DNA of 56,870 nucleotides, the filler included, from Dirinaria sp. TL-2023a (taxonomy: Eukaryota), in the NCBI GenBank assembly GCA_051941275.1. It is 3 parts of 3 records of this genome, joined end to end, with 100 filler letters (N's around TTAATTAATTAA, not from the genome) between each part and the next. Parts side by side here need not be neighbours in the genome. Positions count along the whole stretch, not along the records: positions 38,043 to 56,870 come from JAVEBF010000363.1; 2 more parts are not named here. One strand, 5' to 3'. The position numbers and the translations under genes were made by a program. The notes below the pieces were generated by a model. The model saw only the letters and a list, made by a program, of their open reading frames with translations. It had not been told where the DNA came from and made no database searches. Shown here one piece after another: positions 3,388 to 56,870 of this stretch. Position 1 is the stretch's first letter. Each line of letters begins with the position of its first letter.

Positions 3388-4964
3388 TGTTCGGGCAGTC
3401 GCAAGGTCCCTCACTTCCTTCTCCATTAACCTTGGCCAATAACCCAGGCAATCAAATTTGCGAAGGACAACTGTAGTCGGCCTTCGACCTACAAAGGGGC
3501 TTCTTAACGTAGCGCGGTAATATGTGGTCGAATCGCCCCTAAAAGAGTGACTACGTCCATGTCCACGGAGGTTGAAAGATAGCAGGACGCGTCATGCTTT
3601 CTGACCACGAGTTGGACAATGCCCACTATCTCAACCACTACGCCGGCAAACGCCTGACATTCATCGTCGAGGTAGCTGCGTAATGTGCCTTTACCCTGCG
3701 GACATACAATGAAAGCTCGGGTAATAAGGGTCATACCCTTGTTCTATGCTGTAGACTGGGTCAATTTTACGCAACCCAAGAACTGAAAAAGCGAGAGTCG
3801 GGGTTATTTGGCCGTTAGCAAGTATTTCCAAGACAGCACCGTGGACTCTGATATCAACAACGAGCCGTTTATCCCTTATTTCTCGGCCGCAGGCGTGGAT
3901 TGGCCGGTGCCGTTAACCTTCGAAGCAGGAACCGGGTCTTTGAGCTTCAAACTTCTGGCAGGCCCAAGGGGTGAGCTAGGCGTTACGTTGACGAAAGTTG
4001 AGGCAAACGCTAGAAATGAGGCTATATGGTTGAAGTTGTGAGTGGCAGATCAGATGCCAGCGTTAGAAGATGATTTGCGAAATCCGTCGCAGCAATCAAG
4101 CGCTTTATTTAGCGGACGAAGTCCGAAAGAAGTTTGCAGCATTAATTGTAATCGCTTGCTGAGGTCATTTGTCTGTTGTCCATGTTCGAAGGAAGCCAAA
4201 CCTCGTCCACCAGCCAATAATTTAGAACGTTGTTGGATTCTATGCACAATGACATATCTCGCACGGCTTGCCCAGCCCCACAACAACCCTAAAGCACCAT
4301 CACCCACGACTTTTTAACTTTGATGCCATTGCATCCGCATCCAAGAAAGAGAATATATTCGGCAGATGTAAGTCTGAGAACAAATACCTATTTTTTGAAA
4401 GATGACGTTGTGTTTCTTATTTAATGTGTCGTCTCGCCCGCTCTCGGACTGGACACGAACTAAAGGTTGCGTACTGTACTCCGTACGATTCAGTGAATTC
4501 TTGCGAACAAACCGTGCGTCCTGAGCGGCAGCGTCATGCGTCGACTGTGGAGAGCGGCTGATGGCAAACCTGGCTATTACTCGACTCACGCGATGGCTAT
4601 CCCACAAGCAACAAAGCTCCTCTTACGATACCTGAGAGAAAATGAGTCCTTTCAGCAAAACGAATTAGCAAGCCTTGATCCTCGTTAATATTATCAGAGC
4701 ATTGACATTGAACGACGGGTCGAAATGAAAACTCATTGATGGATATCCCGATCACAGCTGCCGAGCGACTTGATGCGCGTGTAGGCAGCATATTGTGGGA
4801 TCTGATCGCCTCTTATGGCGCTCTATGCGCTCGCAGAGGCGCTGGAATCCAAAGTCCTATAAGTTCCAGCCACAATGATTCCGCGGAGATGCAATCGATC
4901 TTCGATAACATCTCGTGCGGTCCGCAAGTCGACAGATTTCGAAGTACCTTGTCTGGACCACACA

Positions 4965-18930: not shown

Positions 18931-19030
18931 NNNNNNNNNNNNNNNNNNNNNNNNNNNNNNNNNNNNNNNNNNNNTTAATTAATTAANNNNNNNNNNNNNN
19001 NNNNNNNNNNNNNNNNNNNNNNNNNNNNNN
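18931..19030. other. Artificial contig linker (N44-TTAATTAATTAA-N44)
   Basis: Exactly 100 nt with a six-frame stop cassette; identical to 37943-38042. Confidence 0.98.
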
Positions 19031-30092: not shown

Positions 30093-33000
30093 ATGGGAGG
30101 CTCAACAACATCCTGCACCTCGGCTTCACGTTCTACACCTGATCAGCCTCCCAAAAAGGTGAAAAAGCAACCGCCTCAGAAAAACATCGATGATCTGTGG
30201 GATGCTTTTACCACCAAGTATCCGGGCAAAGTCTTCTCTGTTCTGCCAAATAATGTCTATGCCGAGACAAAGGCTGCTAAAGCTCCCAAAGGCGTCGTCC
30301 TCGGCCAGCAGGCTGGGAAATCCTACGATGAAGCTCGTGCGGAGTGCAAGCACGCTGTGGAGAAGATTGCTATGGAATGTAGGAGAGTTAACATGAAGTA
30401 TCGAGACGCGCACTTCGATATCGAATTCGACCTGAAGAATGGGATTCGAGATTGTTTGGACGGACTGGCCCGAGGAGGTTACGATTTGTCTCCGAAATCC
30501 TGTAAAAGAGTAACAGTACGTTCCACCATCCCTTCAACCTGCTCCAGGTGACCTCTGATAAACTCTCATGACGAGTTTTAGCAAATTTTCGACAAGCCTA
30601 TCTTCCTCGAAGAAGGCGCAACAGCGAGCGACGTCCGCCAGGGCCGAAACGGAGATTGTTGGTTTATGTCTGCCTTGTGTGCACTAGGTGGAAAGAAAGA
30701 CCTTATCGATAAAGTCTGTGTTGCTCAAGATGAGAAAGTCGGCGTCTATGGTTTTGTTTTCCATCGCGGTACGTTTCCATTACTACATTACTATATCGAG
30801 ATGAGATTACCACGCTGTACCACTCTTCTATCACCTGCAGCTGGAAATGCGTTCGAAATCCTACCGTTGGTTAGGAATCAGGGGTTGCTTCTTCCCCAAG
30901 TCGTCAAGCCATGTCTCCTCATGATCTGGTGCTTTGGCTGTGCCTTGGCGCTAAATCACAGTCTTCGCATTGCCCGTCTACCATTGAGATTTCCTTCGTT
31001 GCCAATGCTGACTTTTGACAGACGGCGAATGGATACAGACGATAATCGATGATAAGCTTTACCTAACTGCCGCCGATTGGGACGAGAGTGTTGAAGAAAA
31101 ATGGACCTGGTTGCAGATTAATAGAACTGACGCCGAGGAGGAGTATCGCAAAGCCAATCAAGCTGGATCACGTGCCCTTTATTTTGCGCAATGTAGTAGT
31201 GAGAACGAGACATGGCTGCCTTTGCTGGAGAAAGCTTACGCCAAGGCTCATGGTGACTTTAACTCTATACAGGGAGGATTCACTGGGTAAGTCTGCTTGT
31301 ATCATGACTGTAAAGGCTTGCTGAATGACGCCATGTAGAGAAGCTATCGAAGACTTAACGGGCGGCGTAACAACGGAAATATTCACAAGTGATCTACTGG
31401 ATACCGACAAGTTCTGGAATGAGGAGCTTATGAGCGTCAACGACGAGTTCTTATTCGGTTGTTACACCGGCTTCTTCGACAGCTGGCAGGGGTTTGGTGC
31501 TTGGGCCGACCGAAAAGACATTGTTGCGCTGCACGCGTACTCAATCCTAGAAGCAAGAGAGGTTAAGGGCGAGAGACTGCTCCGGCTCAGAAACCCATGG
31601 GGCCGTGGCGAGTGGAAAGGCGCCTGGAGCGATGGCTCGGAGCAATGGACTCCTGAATGGATGCAGCTGCTGAACCATAGATTCGGCGATGATGGCATGT
31701 TCTGGATCTCTTACAAAGATTTGCTAAGAACATTCCAGTCATTCGATCGCACTAGGCTATTTGGCCCCGACTGGCAGGTCACCCAGCAATGGACTAGTGT
31801 CAACGTGCCCTGGACAGCGGACTACAATGACACCAAATTTAGCGTCACCTTGAGCAAATCAGGTCCGGTGGTTGTTGTATTATCGAAGCTTGATGATCGT
31901 TATTTTCAAGGCCTGGAAGGACAGTACCAATTTTTCCTGCACTTCCGGCTAGAAAAGGATGGGGAACAGGATTATATCGTGCGCAGTCACGGGAATTATA
32001 TGATGAACAGATCGGTCAGCGTTGATCTTGATCTCGAGGCCGGGACATATTCCGTCTTAATGAAAATAACTGCAAGACGTTATTCTCATGATTCGACAGT
32101 AGAAGAGATAGTTAGGGAAAATTGCCGAGGCCGTCAGGATAAGCTCATTCAGGTTGGTCTAGCATATGATTTGGCCCACGCCAAGGGTCAGATCAGAGAG
32201 ACCGAGTCCGAGAAGCAGCTACGCCTAGAACGTGAAGAGAAGAAGAAGGCAGCTGAACATCAGAAGCGTCGTAAGGAGCTACGAGCAACATGGTTGAAGA
32301 ATTGGGAGATAAACAAAAAGCGGGTTGCCAGGGAGAAGCGGCAAGCCAAGCGGAAAGAGGAGCATGACAGGAAAGTCGAGGCCCGCAAGGCGGCCACAGC
32401 TCAGGCAAACGACAATGAAGGTGCCGCTTCTGCTGGCCAGGTTGAGTCACAAGACGCTGAAAACACGAAGAAACAAGACGGTAATAGGACAGATGCGGTC
32501 AACCCAGACATGCCAGCGACAACTGATGGCGTGCCGGCAGAGCCAAATTCGCCAGAGACCAAGCTTGAGGAACAAAAGGTGGAGACTGAGACGAGTGTTG
32601 AGGAAGCTCCAGTACAGGCCGAAGTTGGAATAGAAAAGCAAGGTGACACGACTACTGTGGGCGAGCAGACAAGAAGTGAGCAGCTTCAAGGCACTGATGC
32701 GGAGTCCAAGCCGGACACGGCCACTGAAGAGAAAGCCGCCCAGTTCGAAGCTGCGCTGAAGAATGTGCCGTCTGTCGTTATCAACGGCAATACTCCAGTT
32801 CCAGGTACTGCTCCCGCAGCCGGTACCGCACGACCGCCCTCCACTGCCGCTGCCAACGACAATTGGGAATACGACTCCCTTGCCTCGTTCAACTCCTCCA
32901 TCGTTACCGAGCTCGACCTCCCTGATCCGCCACCACCTGATGAAGAAGCCGCACCACCGACAGCACCAGCCAATCCGGACGAAGAGGACGACAACGCGGA

Positions 33001-33265
33001 GTTCGAGAATGATCCTTGGAACGCGGTGTGTGTGGTGGGTCTAAGGGTGTACTCAAAGGACGAAGGGTTATCTATATCGGTTGTGAGGCCGAAGCGTGAA
33101 GATGAGGAAGATACGCCATTAGATCTGGACGACAACAGCAGAGGGGCAAGTGGTGAAACGATCAAAGATGAGGAGGGGACTGTGAAGACTGGAGATGCAG
33201 CTCAGGACAAGATCGAGGCGGAGATCAAGGAAGGGGCCAAGCCAGAAAGCGCTGATGCGAAGTAG
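30093..33265 (+). CDS. Calpain-family cysteine protease (4 exons)
   Basis: Catalytic triad motifs DVRQGRNGDCWFMSAL (Cys), HAYSI (His) and LRNPWG (Asn); WLPLLEKAYAKAHG; long acidic/coiled-coil C-terminus ending DPWNAVCVVGLRVYSKD. Confidence 0.93.
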
Positions 33266-37942: not shown

Positions 37943-38042
37943 NNNNNNNNNNNNNNNNNNNNNNNNNNNNNNNNNNNNNNNNNNNNTTAATTAATTAANN
38001 NNNNNNNNNNNNNNNNNNNNNNNNNNNNNNNNNNNNNNNNNN
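37943..38042. other. Artificial contig linker (N44-TTAATTAATTAA-N44)
   Basis: Same 100-nt cassette as 18931-19030. Confidence 0.98.
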
Positions 38043-38360
38043 GGGTCCAACGCCCACACATCCATATTATGCCTGGTTTCAGTTCATAGATTTCTTTTCT
38101 TCTTCATGCTTTGTGCATTTAGTTGATAGCACCTGCATAGATCATATCTTCTGCATCGGTCCTGACAGCAAAGACATTCGAGAATATTCAAAACATTACA
38201 GTTTTTACGATAGAATTGTCAGTTTTTGTTACGATCCTGGAACATAAGTAGTAAGATAGACATCAAGTCGCTGACTTAGTTTAGTTAGTCTTTTGGCCAT
38301 GTCGGGATTTTTACCATTGGGAAATCTATCTAATCAAGGTTGTATCTTTGACAGTTTTCA

Positions 38361-38570
38361 CATATGAGATAAAGAGTCGAGATATACATTAAACGATGCT
38401 CTAATTGTCAAAAGAATAAATATACGACTCATGCTAAATACGAAGAGTTACAATATCAAAAATCATCAACGATATCATGAAACGAAATCACGATGAATTT
38501 TATCATCAAATTATCGAGATCAAAGAATTCAACGACGAATGAAATTTATGATTTCATACTGATAGTTGTT
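38361..38570 (+). pseudogene. Mutated Ty3/gypsy integrase fragment
   Basis: Reads HMR*RVEIYIKRCSNCQKNKYTTHAKYEELQYQKSSTIS*NEITMNFIIKLSRSKNSTTNEIYDFILIVV. This matches the gypsy integrase pattern V..YI..C..CQ..K...H..YG.L......PW..I.MDFITKLP.S......YDSILVVV after C>T/G>A changes. Confidence 0.85.
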
Positions 38571-38607
38571 GTTATGATGCTAAGTTGCACAGTCCTTTAG
38601 TCAAGCT

Positions 38608-38798
38608 TGTCAAGCCTCCTACGGGTCGCGTATGCGGCTATAGAGGTTGCTAATGTTATATTCCAGGGCAACCCCATTCCCCTTCTTCTTTCCTTGTCTT
38701 TCATCTTGTATAGTACTCAATACATAGATCTAAGTCCACCTAGTAATAAAACCTCGTTAACCTCTATCTATGAATAGATCCCAGCTCAGCCCTTGACA
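38608..38798. mobile_element. Solo LTR (~191 bp)
   Basis: TGTCAAG...CTTGACA termini (TG...CA with a 7-bp inverted repeat), internal AATAAA-like signal, flanks AGCT/AGAT (4-bp TSD with 1 mismatch). Retains CC/GG, unlike its flanks. Confidence 0.7.
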
Positions 38799-38882
38799 AG
38801 ATTCTTGATTCTTAATCTTGCAATTACTTAATTTACTCGTGCAACGTCGACGAGTGCAAAGATAAAGATGACAAATAATGTA

Positions 38883-39352
38883 ATATCAGAGTCTACACAG
38901 CGCTTAATAACATATGAGTACAAATAAACTAAAACACTATCTATGAAAAAGAGAAGAAAAGAAAATCTAAATATAGACAGATTTAAATATAAAATCGAAA
39001 TAACATCGATTCGAGAACGCTAAATTTGATTAAATAAAAACACAACATCTTTAACAAAACAATTAATATAGATCTTTTCACACACATGTGATAATCAGAG
39101 ACTCTTCTTCAGGGTTCAGAGTTTAGAAGATCATGTGACCTAGTTATGTGATCGAGCCCATAGGGGTCTAGTTTATGACAAAGATAATTTGATTTTGCTC
39201 GATTAAATTTAGTAGTATTCACGAATCGATATTATTTCGAGTCTTTATTTGAGTTTTTCTATAAGTGAATTTTCTTTTCTTTTCTTCTTTATAGTTAGTG
39301 TCTTAGTTTATTAGCACTCATATATCATTGAGCACTGTGCAGATTCTGATAT
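38883..39352. mobile_element. Foldback/TIR DNA element with ~175-bp inverted arms, heavily mutated
   Basis: Left arm ATATCAGAGTCTACACAGCGCTTAATAACATATGAGTACAAATAAACTAAAACACTA matches the reverse complement of the right arm ATATCAGAATCTGCACAGTGCTCAATGATATATGAGTGCTAATAAACTAAGACACTA. Similarity continues to about 39060/39171. Outer differences are mostly transitions. Confidence 0.85.
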
Positions 39353-39637
39353 CTGTCAGAACAGCGCTGCTCAAAAAATAATCGCTTCGCTGTTCAATTA
39401 AGATTATTCGAAATTGAGTTTTCTATCACTATTATCTGATTTTCAATTGTCGTCGAATTATGTCAAATACACTTGTTATTACTATTCTGCTGAACTGGGA
39501 AGACTAAGTAGACAATCGAATCGTTACTCAGATGGGATCAGATATAGCGTGCTAAGGCGCTGCGGTTTAGTGGTGGTCTTGGCGTTCTCAATAGGACCCT
39601 CGTTCGAGCATTCTCAATGAGCTTCCCAGGTAAGATA

Positions 39638-39808
39638 CTCGTATTCACCTACCTTACTTTGTTGCGTCACCTACTTTGTTGCGAGGGTTAGGGTTATCTC
39701 ACCAAAAGCCCCATAACCCTATGTAAGGTAGGGTTAGAAGAATTTTGATAGGGGTAACCCTAACCCTCGCAACAAAGTAGGTGACGCAACAAAGTAGGTG
39801 AATACGAG
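39638..39808. mobile_element. Young Tc1/mariner-pogo-type MITE (171 bp) with telomere-like units
   Basis: TA TSD (39636-37 and 39809-10). The 54-bp TIR CTCGTATTCACCTACTTTGTTGCGTCACCTACTTTGTTGCGAGGGTTAGGGTTA is identical on both ends apart from a 5-bp insertion in the left arm. Confidence 0.92.
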
Positions 39809-40319
39809 TATTATACTAATTCCAGGTATGAATCCGGCGGCAGCTGTTTCATCTACCTGAGATAGTTCGGTGCCAGCTTCGTTTCAAGATCGACCATCGT
39901 TCAATTTCATTCTATGTATTCCAACACGTAGTGGAAATGCAAATCATCGGGGTATGCCCGTCTTGCAGAATCTGCCTTGAGCAACAGGGCGTCCCCAAGC
40001 GAGCCGCACCCTCCTGCGCAGGAGCTGCGGCTCAAATCCTGTTTCATGTACATATGGGTCATGTCATGGCGGCAACAGTTGCCTTTCCGTGTCAAGTCTC
40101 CGCTCGTCCAGCTGTACAGCCTCGCTGGCCACGATGGGTTGGTGAACAATGAAGCAAGTAGTACTTCTCAATTTCTCGATATCGTTCATGTGCAAGCGAT
40201 GCATTCATCAGAGCATTGATAGGTGATTTGTAAGCATCATGTCGGGTCCTGATCTTATTATAAGCGTTTTAGGTAAGGAGCACTATGTGCGATTCTCCGG
40301 TCACTGACACCTCGCATAG

Positions 40320-52638: not shown

Positions 52639-55600
52639 ATGGGCCCTATAACGGCTTTCAGCCTTGCCTGCGGGGTCATACAGGTAGTCGCGTTCAGTAT
52701 CGACGTGGTCAAGACATGTAAAGAGATTTATGATCGTGGTACTTTGGCTGAGTACGAAGACATTGAGCACATAACGAAGCATCTCGCAGAACTCGAATTA
52801 AATATCAGCCTCCTGACTCTAAGTCAACCTTTAGGAAGTACTCAAATGCCAGGGGATAAGGCGCTCAAAGATTTAATCGCAGGGTGTTCCGCTACCGCCA
52901 AGGAGCTCATCAAACTTCTTGATACTATAAAGATTGGGACACCTCAGAGAAAGCGAGAGACCATCAAGAAAGCTTTAAGGTCTTTTCGAGTAAAGAAGCA
53001 AATCCAGGACATTCAAAAGCGGCTCGACAGCTACCAAAATGCCGTTGACACACATGTTCTGATCAGTCTAAGGTAAGCAGTGATGTTCATGTATTCTAAA
53101 TGAGTCCAACGACACAGATCATACCGAATATGGTCTAGATTTCTTTTGAGTATAATATTTTCCTACTATCATCCCTCAAATGTCAAGCCGCTTCGGGACA
53201 TCATTTGGAGTCACCTTTAAGGCAAAGCCATTTTTCTCTCATAGATTTAATCTAGACATCGATCATTCCATATCAACTTTTCAATTCGCAATGAACGAGA
53301 ATTTCAACTCCTTTTCCGATTCTCAAAAGTTTATTGGCTACGCCTGTCAGATCCCGATATTGAGCTGAGATGATGATTCTATAGCTATACAAGACAACTT
53401 AAGTATGCTAACGTGTGCGAGTAGGCAGCGATGTGATCTGAATGACCTTAAGCAATCTGAGAGCTTTCAAAGCTTAGAAGAGAAGGTTCAAGACATGATC
53501 AATACCCTTTCTGAAGGACCGAAGAAATTCGATGATATTGCAAAAGCCATTCAGGGCGAAAATCAAGAGATAAGAAATCATATCGATAGTGCCTTTAAGG
53601 ACCATAGAAAACTAGGAGAGGAGCAAGAGTATTATCGGCGCCTACTCAAAAGCTTATGGTTTACCGAAATATACAGTCGTGAGGAACGGATTGCAGATGC
53701 CCACAGACAGACTTTCGAATGGGTATTTGATCAGTCTGGGCAAGCTCTAGGTCCTTGGGATAATTTTGCTCAATGGCTTGAGACTGGGCAGAACACGTAC
53801 TGGATCAATGGTAAAGCTGGTTCCGGGAAGTCGACCTTGATGAGCTTTTTGTGTGAAGATGCTCGAACAAAGAACTCATTAATGAAATGGTCCGGAAGCA
53901 AACCGCTACTAACGCCGAAGTTTTTTTTCTGGACCGCTGGTACCCCACTGCAGAAGAGTGTCGAAGGGCTTCTACGATCTCTCATCTGGCAAGTCCTAAA
54001 GGAAATGCCCAATACTCATCATAGACAGTCTCACTTTCTGGGGCTTGACGACAGTGCTCAACATGGTATTGACAATTTTGCGGCTTGGACGGATCGCCGC
54101 CTTCAGAATACTTTTAGGGAGGTTGTACATTGGGCAACAAGCTCACATCGCCTATGTCTCTTCATTGATGGACTAGACGAATACGCAGGGGATGAAGATG
54201 AGCTGATAAATCTTATCGAGGCCACTGTGCAACGTTCTGAAGTCAAGATATGCTTATCCAGTCGACCTCATCGAGCGTTTGCACAAGCCTTCGAGTCATC
54301 GGCACAGCTTCGTCTTCAAGATTTAACGCGTACAGACATCGAGAAGTTTGTAGTTGACCAATTCAAATCCGTGTCACAGGTGAAATCCATAAGTTCGCAA
54401 CAACCGAGATGGCTCGAGAGAACTACGTCAGAGATCTTGTGGAAAGCTCAAGGAGTCTTTTTGTGGGTTTCTTTAGCAGTAAAGGACCAGATACGTGGCC
54501 TTAAAGCTGAAGATAGCCCACAGCAACTCGAAGAGAGACTTGCTTCTTTACCTTCTGAGCTTGAGGGTATATATGAGCGCATGTTGTACCGGATTGAAAC
54601 CCCACATCGAAGGGAAGCGTCATCCTTTTTGACTACTGTGCTTCATCACCGTTCACAAAAACATCCTTCGATCCATGCATCTCTGCTCGATCTTGTGCTT
54701 GCATCGCGAGAAGATCTAGCCGATCTGATTGGCTCCGCCGAAAAAATGCCAGAGCTTGAGCTGATCCATACCTCGTCAATGGTACGACGAAGAGTTCAAA
54801 CAATTTGTGCCGGCCTTTTAGAAGTTTTCGACAAGAAGGAAGGTAATGACTGGGACGAGGAGGAAGGTAACGACTTCATAGACTATGACGAAGAGAACGT
54901 AGATGACGACGAGGAAGATTCCAAAGGTGATTATGAAGAGGTCAAGCACAATGAGGAAGACGAGCATGCAGACGATGACAATTACGAAGTTGGAAACAGT
55001 GATAGCGACATCCACGGTCGCCCCATGGTAGCTGAAACTGAGAACAAAGGGCCGTATTGTAAGGGGGAACTCACGGAGGTAGCTTTAAAAGATCTTGAGT
55101 TCAGAACATCTGTTGAGTTCATTCACCGTACAGCCTTCGATTTTATGAGGGAGTCGAGATGCGGAGTTGAGTTCCTCCGGGATAACTCGTTTCTTCGGTG
55201 CAGTCCTTATGTCACAGCTGTGCATCTTCGCATAGCAAAGCTACGATTATTCGGATGTCGAGCCGATGGTTCGAGCGTGGAGAATATGATGGAGCTAATC
55301 TCCATTGCTGAAATTTCGACCGGAGTTGCACAAACGTCATTATGTTACCTCCTAGATAATGTAATGCGCAGGATTGACGAAACGTATGCAGATCAGCGAG
55401 ACAACTCGCGTTGGCCTGAACGCTGGACTATATTGCGACTTCGAAGGTCACGATATCAAGACACTCCGGAACTGCCTCCCCATGAAGTCCGGGCCTGGTT
55501 CAAAGATCATCTCCAAGAAGCTGATTTGCTGAGCCTAATAGTTTTTCACGGTCTGACGTTGTCTTTCCGACAGATGCTCCAAAATAGAAAGACTGTCACT

Positions 55601-56272
55601 ACTAGCGGCGGAGTTGGACGTCACTTGATTTGGTCTGTGCTCGGTGTGCCCAGCACCGTCCTATACACTCGTGCGACTATAGAGTCTCAGCGTCTGAAGA
55701 CTGCCTCAAGCTTAGCCGTAGTGGATGAGTTGTTAAGGCGATCTGCCAATCCTAATCTGGGCTCTCCTGGGCTGACGCCATGGTCAATATTCTTGCGACG
55801 GATGCACAGTTTCTTCAGAGAAAATGCATATCGCAATAGAGATTCTGAAGCTCGCCCAGAGCACTTGCGTCCAGCATTCATCCACACTGCCTCTAGCTTC
55901 ATTGAACGAGGTGCGGACGTGCGTACGAACTGCTTATTGAAAGTGCCGGTGTATTTTTATCACACATTGGATCCTCTCAATGTCATGTTCATATATATCG
56001 TGTTCATAGTGAATATATCTCCACTAGGTATACTTGAACACTGTCTCGGTAGTCGAAAAGATATCTCTGAGCTGAAAGAGAGGGCGTTAGCTAGAGGCGC
56101 TCAGTGCTACTCAAGATGCACTAAACTTTATGCCTTTTATACAGACAGTCCTATGAGCACTTACGCGAAGGATTTCGCAATGTCTGACGCAGAGTCAGCT
56201 GCATTCCTTGAAAGTTTCAAAGGACAAATGCCCTATGGCGGAACGATAGATTTTAAAGACCATGTTAACTAG
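52639..56272 (+). CDS. NLR-like NACHT NTPase with N-terminal SesA/HeLo-like helical domain (2 exons, intron about 53073-53424)
   Basis: N-terminus MGPITAFSLACGVIQVVAFS. R.ERIADAHRQTFEWVF, Walker A WINGKAGSGKSTLM, Walker B LFIDGLDE, KICLSSRP, LRLQDLT..DI, AQGVFLWV, LPSELEGIYERML, VEFIHRTAFDF. Confidence 0.92.
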
Positions 56273-56473
56273 CTTGGTCATGAGATCTGGCAAAATCGTT
56301 TAGCGGCTTCGAATAACGTTTCTACAGACAAGAAAGAGGGGATTCTTAGCTGGATGGAGAGAAAGGATTTCGTTAACCGCTGGTTCCTTTCGATTATCCT
56401 TTTAATTTTGGAGCTTTCAATGTTTCAACATGGTACACAGCTTGTCTTATGCTATAGAATTCACACGAATTAG

Positions 56474-56870
56474 AACACATGATATGTAAACTTGATTGTC
56501 CGAGTTTGAATCATAATAACAGTCTGATTGTTGTGTTTTTACCCAATGATCCAATTTAACAATTCTCGAGACTTGATCCAAAGAAATAAAAATTTTTTTT
56601 TACAAAATTTGATAATGAGCAATATACTTGTTCAAAAGTGCAATTCGTATTAAATCAAGATTTTTTTTAAAAAAAATTCCCACTTGAAACTCTATGATAA
56701 CCAATAGTGTGTAAAGACGTAATCCTCAATAAAACAAAATTCTTCAATTAACAATACAACGACAACATCTTTATTCAGATTCAAACTTGGAGACAAATAA
56801 CTTTAGATATCATTTTTTATTTTCTATATAAATTCGGTAATATAGAACAAGCTGTGTACTATCTTAAGAC
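56474..56870. repeat. AT-rich, GG-depleted relic (probable mutated repeat)
   Basis: Sharp GC drop after the NACHT gene, no long ORF, no GG between 56434 and 56788. Confidence 0.45.

Follow-up and report, generated by a model that had tools for sequence, protein, structure and literature searches.

Transposon relics lacking CC and GG in a lichen-forming fungus are consistent with repeat-induced point mutation that prefers CpC

In Neurospora crassa repeat-induced point mutation (RIP), which involves RID and DIM-2/H3K9me3, makes C:G to T:A transitions on both strands of the DNA, and in repeats only. Stop codons are created in transposon genes, and AT-rich relics accumulate, with intact young copies lying beside mutated old ones. 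The preferred context is CpA, leading to a rise in TpA, and CpC is the least used. RIP-like processes elsewhere act at CpG and CpA in Aspergillus and Penicillium, and at TpCpG in Microbotryum and other Pucciniomycotina; we know of no case among these in which the context is CpC. Here we analyze a stretch of 56,870 bases from the genome assembly of Dirinaria sp. TL-2023a (the window), in which three blocks of repeated DNA, one of them a relic of a Ty3/gypsy integrase, contain no CC or GG dinucleotide. A preliminary description of this DNA proposed a repeat-directed C>T process with an unusual preference for CpC. Our analysis of the blocks and of related elements in other assemblies points to the same conclusion.

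The locus and its relatives share with Neurospora RIP the restriction to C:G to T:A transitions, the action on both strands, the confinement to repeats, the stop codons in transposon genes, the AT-rich relics and the intact young copies beside mutated ones, but differ in context. In the related copies CpC is changed at a rate of 0.595 and CpA at 0.232, and TpA is not enriched in the window blocks (observed/expected (o/e) 0.71-0.84). As in Aspergillus, Penicillium and Microbotryum, we see that the context of repeat-directed C>T mutation varies among fungal lineages. Unlike the systems of those fungi and of other Pucciniomycotina, CpG is here the least affected context (0.124) and is enriched in the relics (o/e 1.4-1.8 in the window and 2.27 in the relatives).

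A CpC>TpC / GpG>GpA class, with the index (CpC+GpG)/(TpC+GpA), was predefined in RIPCAL (Hane and Oliver 2008, PMC2621366), and the accessible part of that source names no species in which the class is dominant. Within lichens, strong RIP with sharp borders has been described in Cladonia rangiformis, together with homologues of RID and DIM-2 (PMC12542154), and RIP-affected regions have been described in Xanthoria (bioRxiv 10.1101/2025.11.25.690456). In the accessible sections of both sources RIP was judged by GC content or RIPper only. Those of a 2025 kingdom-wide survey (PMC12543289) describe RIP-like defences as sharing a preference for CpA, and the term CpC is absent from them. A search of the full-text literature, with subscription journals and supplements lying outside it, found no species with CpC as the leading RIP class.

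CC and GG in the three blocks

The preliminary description reported no CC or GG in positions 38340-38593, 38793-39111 and 39167-39496 (blocks 1, 2 and 3), and our count gives 0 CC and 0 GG for each. The numbers expected from base composition are 5.1, 7.8 and 7.6 CC, and 6.0, 4.8 and 6.7 GG, for blocks 1, 2 and 3, respectively. When each block was shuffled 20,000 times by mononucleotide, zero CC+GG was never reached; the lowest count was 2, with means of 10.8, 12.3 and 14.0. The stretches that hold the blocks, 38339-38594 (256 bp), 38792-39112 (321 bp) and 39166-39497 (332 bp), are longer than any other CC/GG-free stretch of the window. Among those free of N the next in length measures 101 bp, against a median gap of 6 bp (n = 6086 gaps). 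AT-richness alone provides no explanation for the blocks, since other AT-rich DNA of the window keeps these dinucleotides: 22 of 2175 segments of 250 bp elsewhere have a GC content ≤ 0.36, and these keep at least 6 CC+GG, with a median of 15. The AT-rich end of the window (56426-56870, GC 0.24-0.29) has normal CC/GG, at 6-8 per 250 bp, and serves as an internal control.

The loss along the locus follows an all-or-none pattern. In the DNA between and beside the blocks CC+GG is found at observed/expected counts of 21/21.5, 25/20.6, 8/7.1 and 14/16.8, the second of these being the 199-bp stretch 38594-38792 and the third the 55-bp spacer 39112-39166. CA, TG, CG and TCGA had been described as abundant within the blocks, and this is what we find, with o/e ratios of 1.08-1.33 for CA, 0.98-1.34 for TG and 1.40-1.81 for CG, and 2, 4 and 5 occurrences of TCGA in blocks 1, 2 and 3. 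TC and GA exceed expectation (o/e 1.38-1.54 and 1.48-1.61), and TA falls below it. There is no depletion of CWG in the blocks, where the counts are 3, 4 and 11 and the expected numbers 3.9, 5.4 and 6.3. Ultraviolet damage was considered as a cause and rejected, since its signature would lower TC, whereas TC is enriched.

The usual thresholds of the standard RIP indices, as quoted in PMC3897900, are 0.89 for TpA/ApT and 1.03 for (CpA+TpG)/(ApC+GpT). The window blocks have values of 0.58-0.84 and 1.12-1.40 and lie on the non-RIP side of both. By contrast, CC/GG-free DNA pooled from the relatives described below (161 stretches, 110,891 bp; GC 23%, CG o/e 2.27) has values of 1.03 and 0.88, and passes both. 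The expectation that standard indices miss such DNA therefore holds for lighter or CpC-only relics like the window blocks, but not for heavily mutated relatives. Since the latter pass the indices, RIP in lichens has been called in published work without the context being noticed.

Judged by sequence similarity, block 1 represents a piece of the integrase encoded by a Ty3/gypsy pol gene, split by a later insertion. On the + strand, 38348-38574 gives an ungapped 227-bp DNA match to the pol genes of three related elements (L008, L009 and L013) and is colinear with intact elements. The block itself, 38348-38593 (+), runs from the end of the zinc-binding H2C2 region to the start of the catalytic core, retains the Cys, Cys and His columns of intact relatives, and is interrupted by stop codons at 38370 (TAA) and 38478 (TGA), with the frame lost past about 38568. 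With the stops written as X, Pfam gives a weak match to PF17921 Integrase_H2C2 (E = 0.0012; 19.4 bits, under the cut-off of 25.5). A HMMER search gives 106 hits among 1.84 billion representatives (best 1.5e-20), which include pol proteins of 1128-1483 amino acids.

The relic extends further upstream than had been described. Positions 38165-38224 (+) align to 3791-3850 of the intact element L009, within the H2C2 region, with a score of 61 against a shuffle maximum of 31, and fall within a CC/GG-free stretch (38162-38236). Nine reference bases, L009 3842-3850, are matched twice in the window, and 38225-38347 is therefore a 123-bp insertion flanked by a 9-bp target duplication (38216-38224 and 38348-38356). 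The coordinates given earlier are corrected accordingly, with 38165-38224 added to the relic and 38225-38347 assigned to the later insertion. No clear terminal inverted repeats were found in 38225-38347. Its density of CC and GG is normal, with 8 CC+GG in 38295-38339 alone, and either it came after the purge or it is below the target length. The segment 38295-38339 (encoding GHVG) was considered as the start of the integrase zinc finger with GG retained, and was rejected, the true upstream piece being 38165-38224. The purged tract of block 1 hence coincides with transposon-homologous DNA (38165-38224 and 38348-38574), and the insertion and the neighbouring DNA are normal.

We examined the codons of block 1 at columns conserved in 22 intact relatives. 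All five conserved Pro columns are occupied by TCN Ser codons (38358, 38466, 38475, 38514 and 38529). These include the KLP>KLS change (TCG at 38514) and the PW>S* change (TCA at 38475 followed by TGA at 38478) that had been noted previously. Conserved Gly is replaced by GAA at 38442, which is the YG>YE change, or by AAT at 38538, and conserved Asp preceded by G is replaced by AAT at 38496 and 38526, the former being the MD>MN change. Each codon change that had been listed is thus found, and each follows the proposed rule of CpC>TpC or GpG>GpA. The same rule accounts for three further conserved columns, in which Thr is replaced by ATC (38505), Ser by TTC (38553) and Val preceded by G by ATA (38562). 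The relatives have Gln at the position of the TAA stop, and this fits a single CpA>TpA change, as had been suggested. When block 1 is compared with the intact element L008 (66% identical), C>T and G>A changes are found at 18 of 21 CpC, 11 of 23 CpT, 8 of 38 CpA and 5 of 22 CpG.

Blocks 2 (38793-39111) and 3 (39167-39496) are the left and right arms of a diverged inverted repeat. The left arm is non-coding, and a Pfam search of both blocks in six frames found no family. Over 177 aligned columns the arms have 137 identities, 27 transitions and 13 transversions, so that the divergence by transversion is 7%, and yet the approximately 900 bp of the blocks are without CC or GG. In simulations on this length, unbiased substitution at 2% recreated about 4 CC/GG, with none in 54 of 2000 runs, and at 5% it recreated about 10, with none in 1 of 2000 runs. 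This suggests that the purge occurred later than most of the divergence of the arms, or that it recurs. A possible third copy of the arm at 38043-38345 was rejected, with a score of 159 against a shuffle maximum of 157.

Mutation spectrum of related elements

A family-alignment scan of metagenome contigs matched 445 stretches, of which 243 encode relatives; the best 80 were kept, of which 73 are distinct. The loci are graded, from intact copies with a GC content of 0.46-0.50 and a CC+GG o/e of about 1, down to an o/e of 0.07. CC/GG-free stretches reach 3322 bp, and in one locus (L077) 10,044 of 10,582 bp lie within such stretches. At least 8 other assembly series have contigs that bear this signature. 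The contigs probably derive from Lecanoromycete mycobionts, judging from a single flank of one element (L036), where the best named matches of the adjacent host gene are in lichen fungi of the same group as the window (62% and 57-58%).

For each of the 65 non-reference copies, the pol DNA was aligned with that of the closest among 8 intact copies, and no rows were dropped. Transitions range from 0.064 to 0.237 per site and transversions from 0.000 to 0.036, with a median transition/transversion ratio of 12.9. We count 9194 C>T and 10119 G>A changes, against 1350 T>C and 1854 A>G in the reverse direction (3204 in total) and 1542 transversions. The split between C>T (48%) and G>A (52%) indicates that both strands are affected. 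In the comparison of L034 with L009, there are 0.129 transitions and 0.000 transversions per site over 3306 bp.

Tabulated by the 3′ neighbour, the rate of C>T is highest at CpC (8874/14922, 0.595), followed by CpA (4630/19929, 0.232), CpT (4056/19141, 0.212) and CpG (1753/14125, 0.124). The preference proposed from the window alone is thus recovered in the family. The changes are neither evenly spread across contexts nor led by CpA or CpG, and in 63 of the 65 copies CpC ranks above every other context. The ratio of the CpC rate to that of the next context has a median of 2.33 (range 0.78-7.11). Among clean copies the lightest are L001 and L002; compared with L006, their rate is 0.44-0.48 at CpC and 0.05-0.09 in other contexts, a difference of 6-9 times. 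CpC dominance calculated in the style of RIPCAL has a median of 0.78 across the 65 copies and rises to 2.5 in the lightest.

The fate of isolated CC dinucleotides (n = 10,283) identifies the cytosine that is changed. TC was found in 5403 cases, TT in 1303 and CT in 906, with 2600 unchanged. TC is six times more common than CT, and the target is therefore the 5′ C. A C on the 5′ side gives no rise in rate (CCG 0.15, CCT 0.17), while a T at the −1 position favours mutation and a G disfavours it. Tryptophan TGG codons became TGA in 339 cases, TAA in 143 and TAG in 36, and 126 were unchanged.

Other contexts are used in heavier-mutated copies, where the rates at CpA and CpT reach 0.3-0.4. In the pol region of one group of four elements compared with L009 (L028, L032, L034 and L055), a G at the +2 position raises the rate, giving 0.46 at CAG, 0.57 at CTG and 0.87 at CCG, compared with 0.20 at CAA and 0.13 at CTT. 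Some copies therefore have a second, symmetric CWG/CHG-like context. The lightest copies show this context weakly and the window blocks not at all, and it may be the mark of another enzyme or pathway.

The edges of the element also mark the limits of the depletion. L036 and L034 represent one and the same insertion. In L036 the o/e of CC+GG is 0.48-0.57 within the element bounded by its long terminal repeats (LTRs), and in the two flanks of 600 bp it is 0.95 and 1.17. The LTRs of L036 are 91.9% identical, compared with 99.4% in the intact L004. At this one element in the relatives, and at one locus in the window, the depletion is limited to repeated sequence and the flanks are spared. These alignments show directly which way the changes go and in what context, that transversions are nearly absent, that the two strands are affected alike and that the changes are confined to the element. 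Intact (L009) and mutated (L029, L034 and L055) copies are found within the same assembly series. In two places (L013 1-1000 and the flanks of L055) an intact or young Ty3 element lies inside DNA of 17-18% GC without CC or GG, a nesting of young in old that resembles what has been reported from RIP-affected regions in Cladonia and Xanthoria.

At the protein level 151 relatives were gathered, from several sources, and 17 of these lack Pro, Gly and Trp entirely. We compared 57 Pro/Gly-poor open reading frames (ORFs), each with its best match among 35 intact relatives. Where the intact protein has Pro (n = 500) the poor ORFs have Ser in 244 cases, Leu in 54, Phe in 42 and Pro in 12, and where it has Gly (n = 410) they have Glu in 148, Asp in 60, Asn in 57, Lys in 57, Ser in 26 and Arg in 20. 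A signal of CpA mutation is absent, as His>Tyr (36) is balanced by Tyr>His (40). Many long relatives without Pro or Gly retain Trp. Public protein collections contain such ORFs of up to 604 amino acids with several Trp residues (P0156, the longest at 604 amino acids, P0208, P0194, P0240 and others). These are probably mutated fungal transposons in which TGA has been read as Trp by gene callers, which would be a systematic artefact of gene prediction on DNA of this kind. A Protein Atlas search with P0156 returned generic Ty3 clusters only, in many phyla, and did not narrow the host range.

Origin of the depletion

We consider that the blocks are repeat relics struck by RIP with a preference for CpC, with a probability of roughly 0.8. 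The reading as RIP is drawn from a burst of mutation free of transversions, its action on both strands, its confinement to repeats, the presence of intact young copies beside mutated ones, and the strong RIP and the RID and DIM-2 homologues already published for lichen fungi. In this lineage RIP would strike first, and most efficiently, at a C preceding another C, giving CpC>TpC on one strand and GpG>GpA on the other. It would act on double-stranded genomic copies, within repeated sequence only, and would run until CC and GG are exhausted. CpT, CpA and in some copies CWG would be slower targets, and CpG the least used. The agent would be cytosine-methyltransferase-like machinery of the RID and/or DIM-2 type, acting premeiotically with an altered sequence preference, and we infer a changed specificity of the methyltransferase or deaminase. 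For the Lecanoromycetes more widely, we lean slightly toward a move of the primary target of RIP from CpA to CpC (5′ C), with a second symmetric CWG/CHG-like component in some lineages.

A number of observations weigh against this reading. The evidence from the organism of the window amounts to about 900 bp, the family table being drawn from other lichen-fungus assemblies, and the Ty3 family of the relatives is 65-70% identical in DNA to the window relic, and so is not the window's own family. The 65 copies share ancestry and are not independent, and the same insertion was recovered in two assemblies in three cases (L028/L029, L033/L037 and L034/L036). Three of the references carry 4-6 in-frame stops. 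The preference for CpC is strong but not exclusive; in 2 of the 65 copies the highest rate is at CpT, and in the DNA Pro>Leu is frequent (721, against 1124 Pro>Ser; n = 2659). A strand-run test in 12 copies gave weak clustering of changes on the same strand (z from 0.13 to −3.17). Lastly, the transitions between the arms of the inverted repeat fall at CpA (13), CpT (9) and CpG (5), accompanied by 13 transversions, and these differences look like ordinary drift rather than hypermutation.

The alternative that survives best is slow decay, in which maintenance or heterochromatin-guided methylation with a preference for CpC would be followed by spontaneous deamination of 5-methylcytosine, without any sensing of repeats. 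A standing process of this kind would suit the recent or recurrent purge of the inverted-repeat arms, which are old (13 transversions in 177 columns) and still have no CC or GG. However, up to 13% transitions with 0.000 transversions, as seen between L034 and L009, represents a burst rather than decay. Also against it, intact and mutated copies occur within one assembly series, and the depletion halts at the borders of the LTRs. We regard slow decay as unlikely.

An AID/APOBEC-like deaminase that edits the cDNA of retrotransposons would also affect CC, and the best documented target here is a retrotransposon. APOBEC3G hypermutation of retroviruses and LTR elements is directed to CC and creates stop codons from Trp. 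APOBEC3G deaminates the 3′ C of CC on one strand of the cDNA, giving TGG>TAG. In the relatives, by contrast, C>T and G>A are close to equal in number (9194 and 10119), the 5′ C is changed (TC 5403 against CT 906), and TGG gives TGA in 339 cases and TAG in 36. Moreover, CC and GG are missing from the arms of the inverted repeat, which are non-coding, and from stretches outside the element as long as 10 kb. This explanation is therefore very improbable. We give almost no weight to chance, base composition or an artefact of sequencing or assembly: the blocks do lie at a contig end of a metagenome-assembled genome, where repeats are often misassembled, but none of the 20,000 shuffles of each block reached zero, other AT-rich DNA retains CC and GG, the transitions are in frame and fit conserved codons, and the signature recurs in at least 8 other assembly series and several sources of proteins.

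The enzyme that makes the mutations of RIP, whose chemistry is still unsettled, leaves no readily visible trace other than its sequence preference. If our reading is correct, the homologues of RID and/or DIM-2 in these fungi have a changed preference, or two enzymes of differing preference act in turn. A lineage in which CpC is taken first and CpG last would provide a natural variant in specificity, with RID and DIM-2 homologues that could be compared and swapped with those of Neurospora. Detection of the TpA/ApT type overlooks CpC-only relics such as the window blocks. On our reading, early lichen RIP would also escape the TpA-based indices on which all published surveys rely. The reconstruction of lichen transposons by reversal of RIP would require another rule. 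Gene callers appear to take the relics as long ORFs without Pro or Gly, which then pollute the protein databases.

Other features of the window

The window comprises three contigs, joined by two copies of one artificial linker (44 N, TTAATTAATTAA, 44 N), at 18931-19030 between contigs 1 and 2 and at 37943-38042 between contigs 2 and 3. DNA on opposite sides of either linker is not physically linked. The repeat relics lie at the extreme start of the third contig, and an Rfam scan of 38043-40200 gave no match.

The genes of the window are a filamentous ascomycete set, including an NLR of the NACHT/NPHP3_N type, a calpain, sugar transporters and an AlkB-like oxygenase. The calpain ORF (31325-33265) matches, with 100% identity, a protein from a metagenome-assembled genome labelled as the lichen fungus Dirinaria sp., and its next named relatives all come from lichen-forming Lecanoromycetes. 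The host is a lichen-forming ascomycete of this class. The large NLR-type gene (53369-56272; NPHP3_N/NACHT with DUF7791) lies 14 kb from the relics and is ordinary for Pezizomycotina.

Close to the blocks there is a palindromic element of 187 bp (39630-39816), resembling a miniature inverted-repeat transposable element. It contains 25 CC+GG against 17.1 expected, a normal content, and was therefore not struck by the mutation process. RIP requires a minimum repeat length, and short repeats escape it; both this palindrome and the 123-bp insertion keep CC and GG, which may reflect their length, or their age or copy number. The arms of the palindrome (39655-39696 and 39755-39796) are 100% complementary, and carry telomere-like GGGTTA repeats and a 17-bp tandem duplication.

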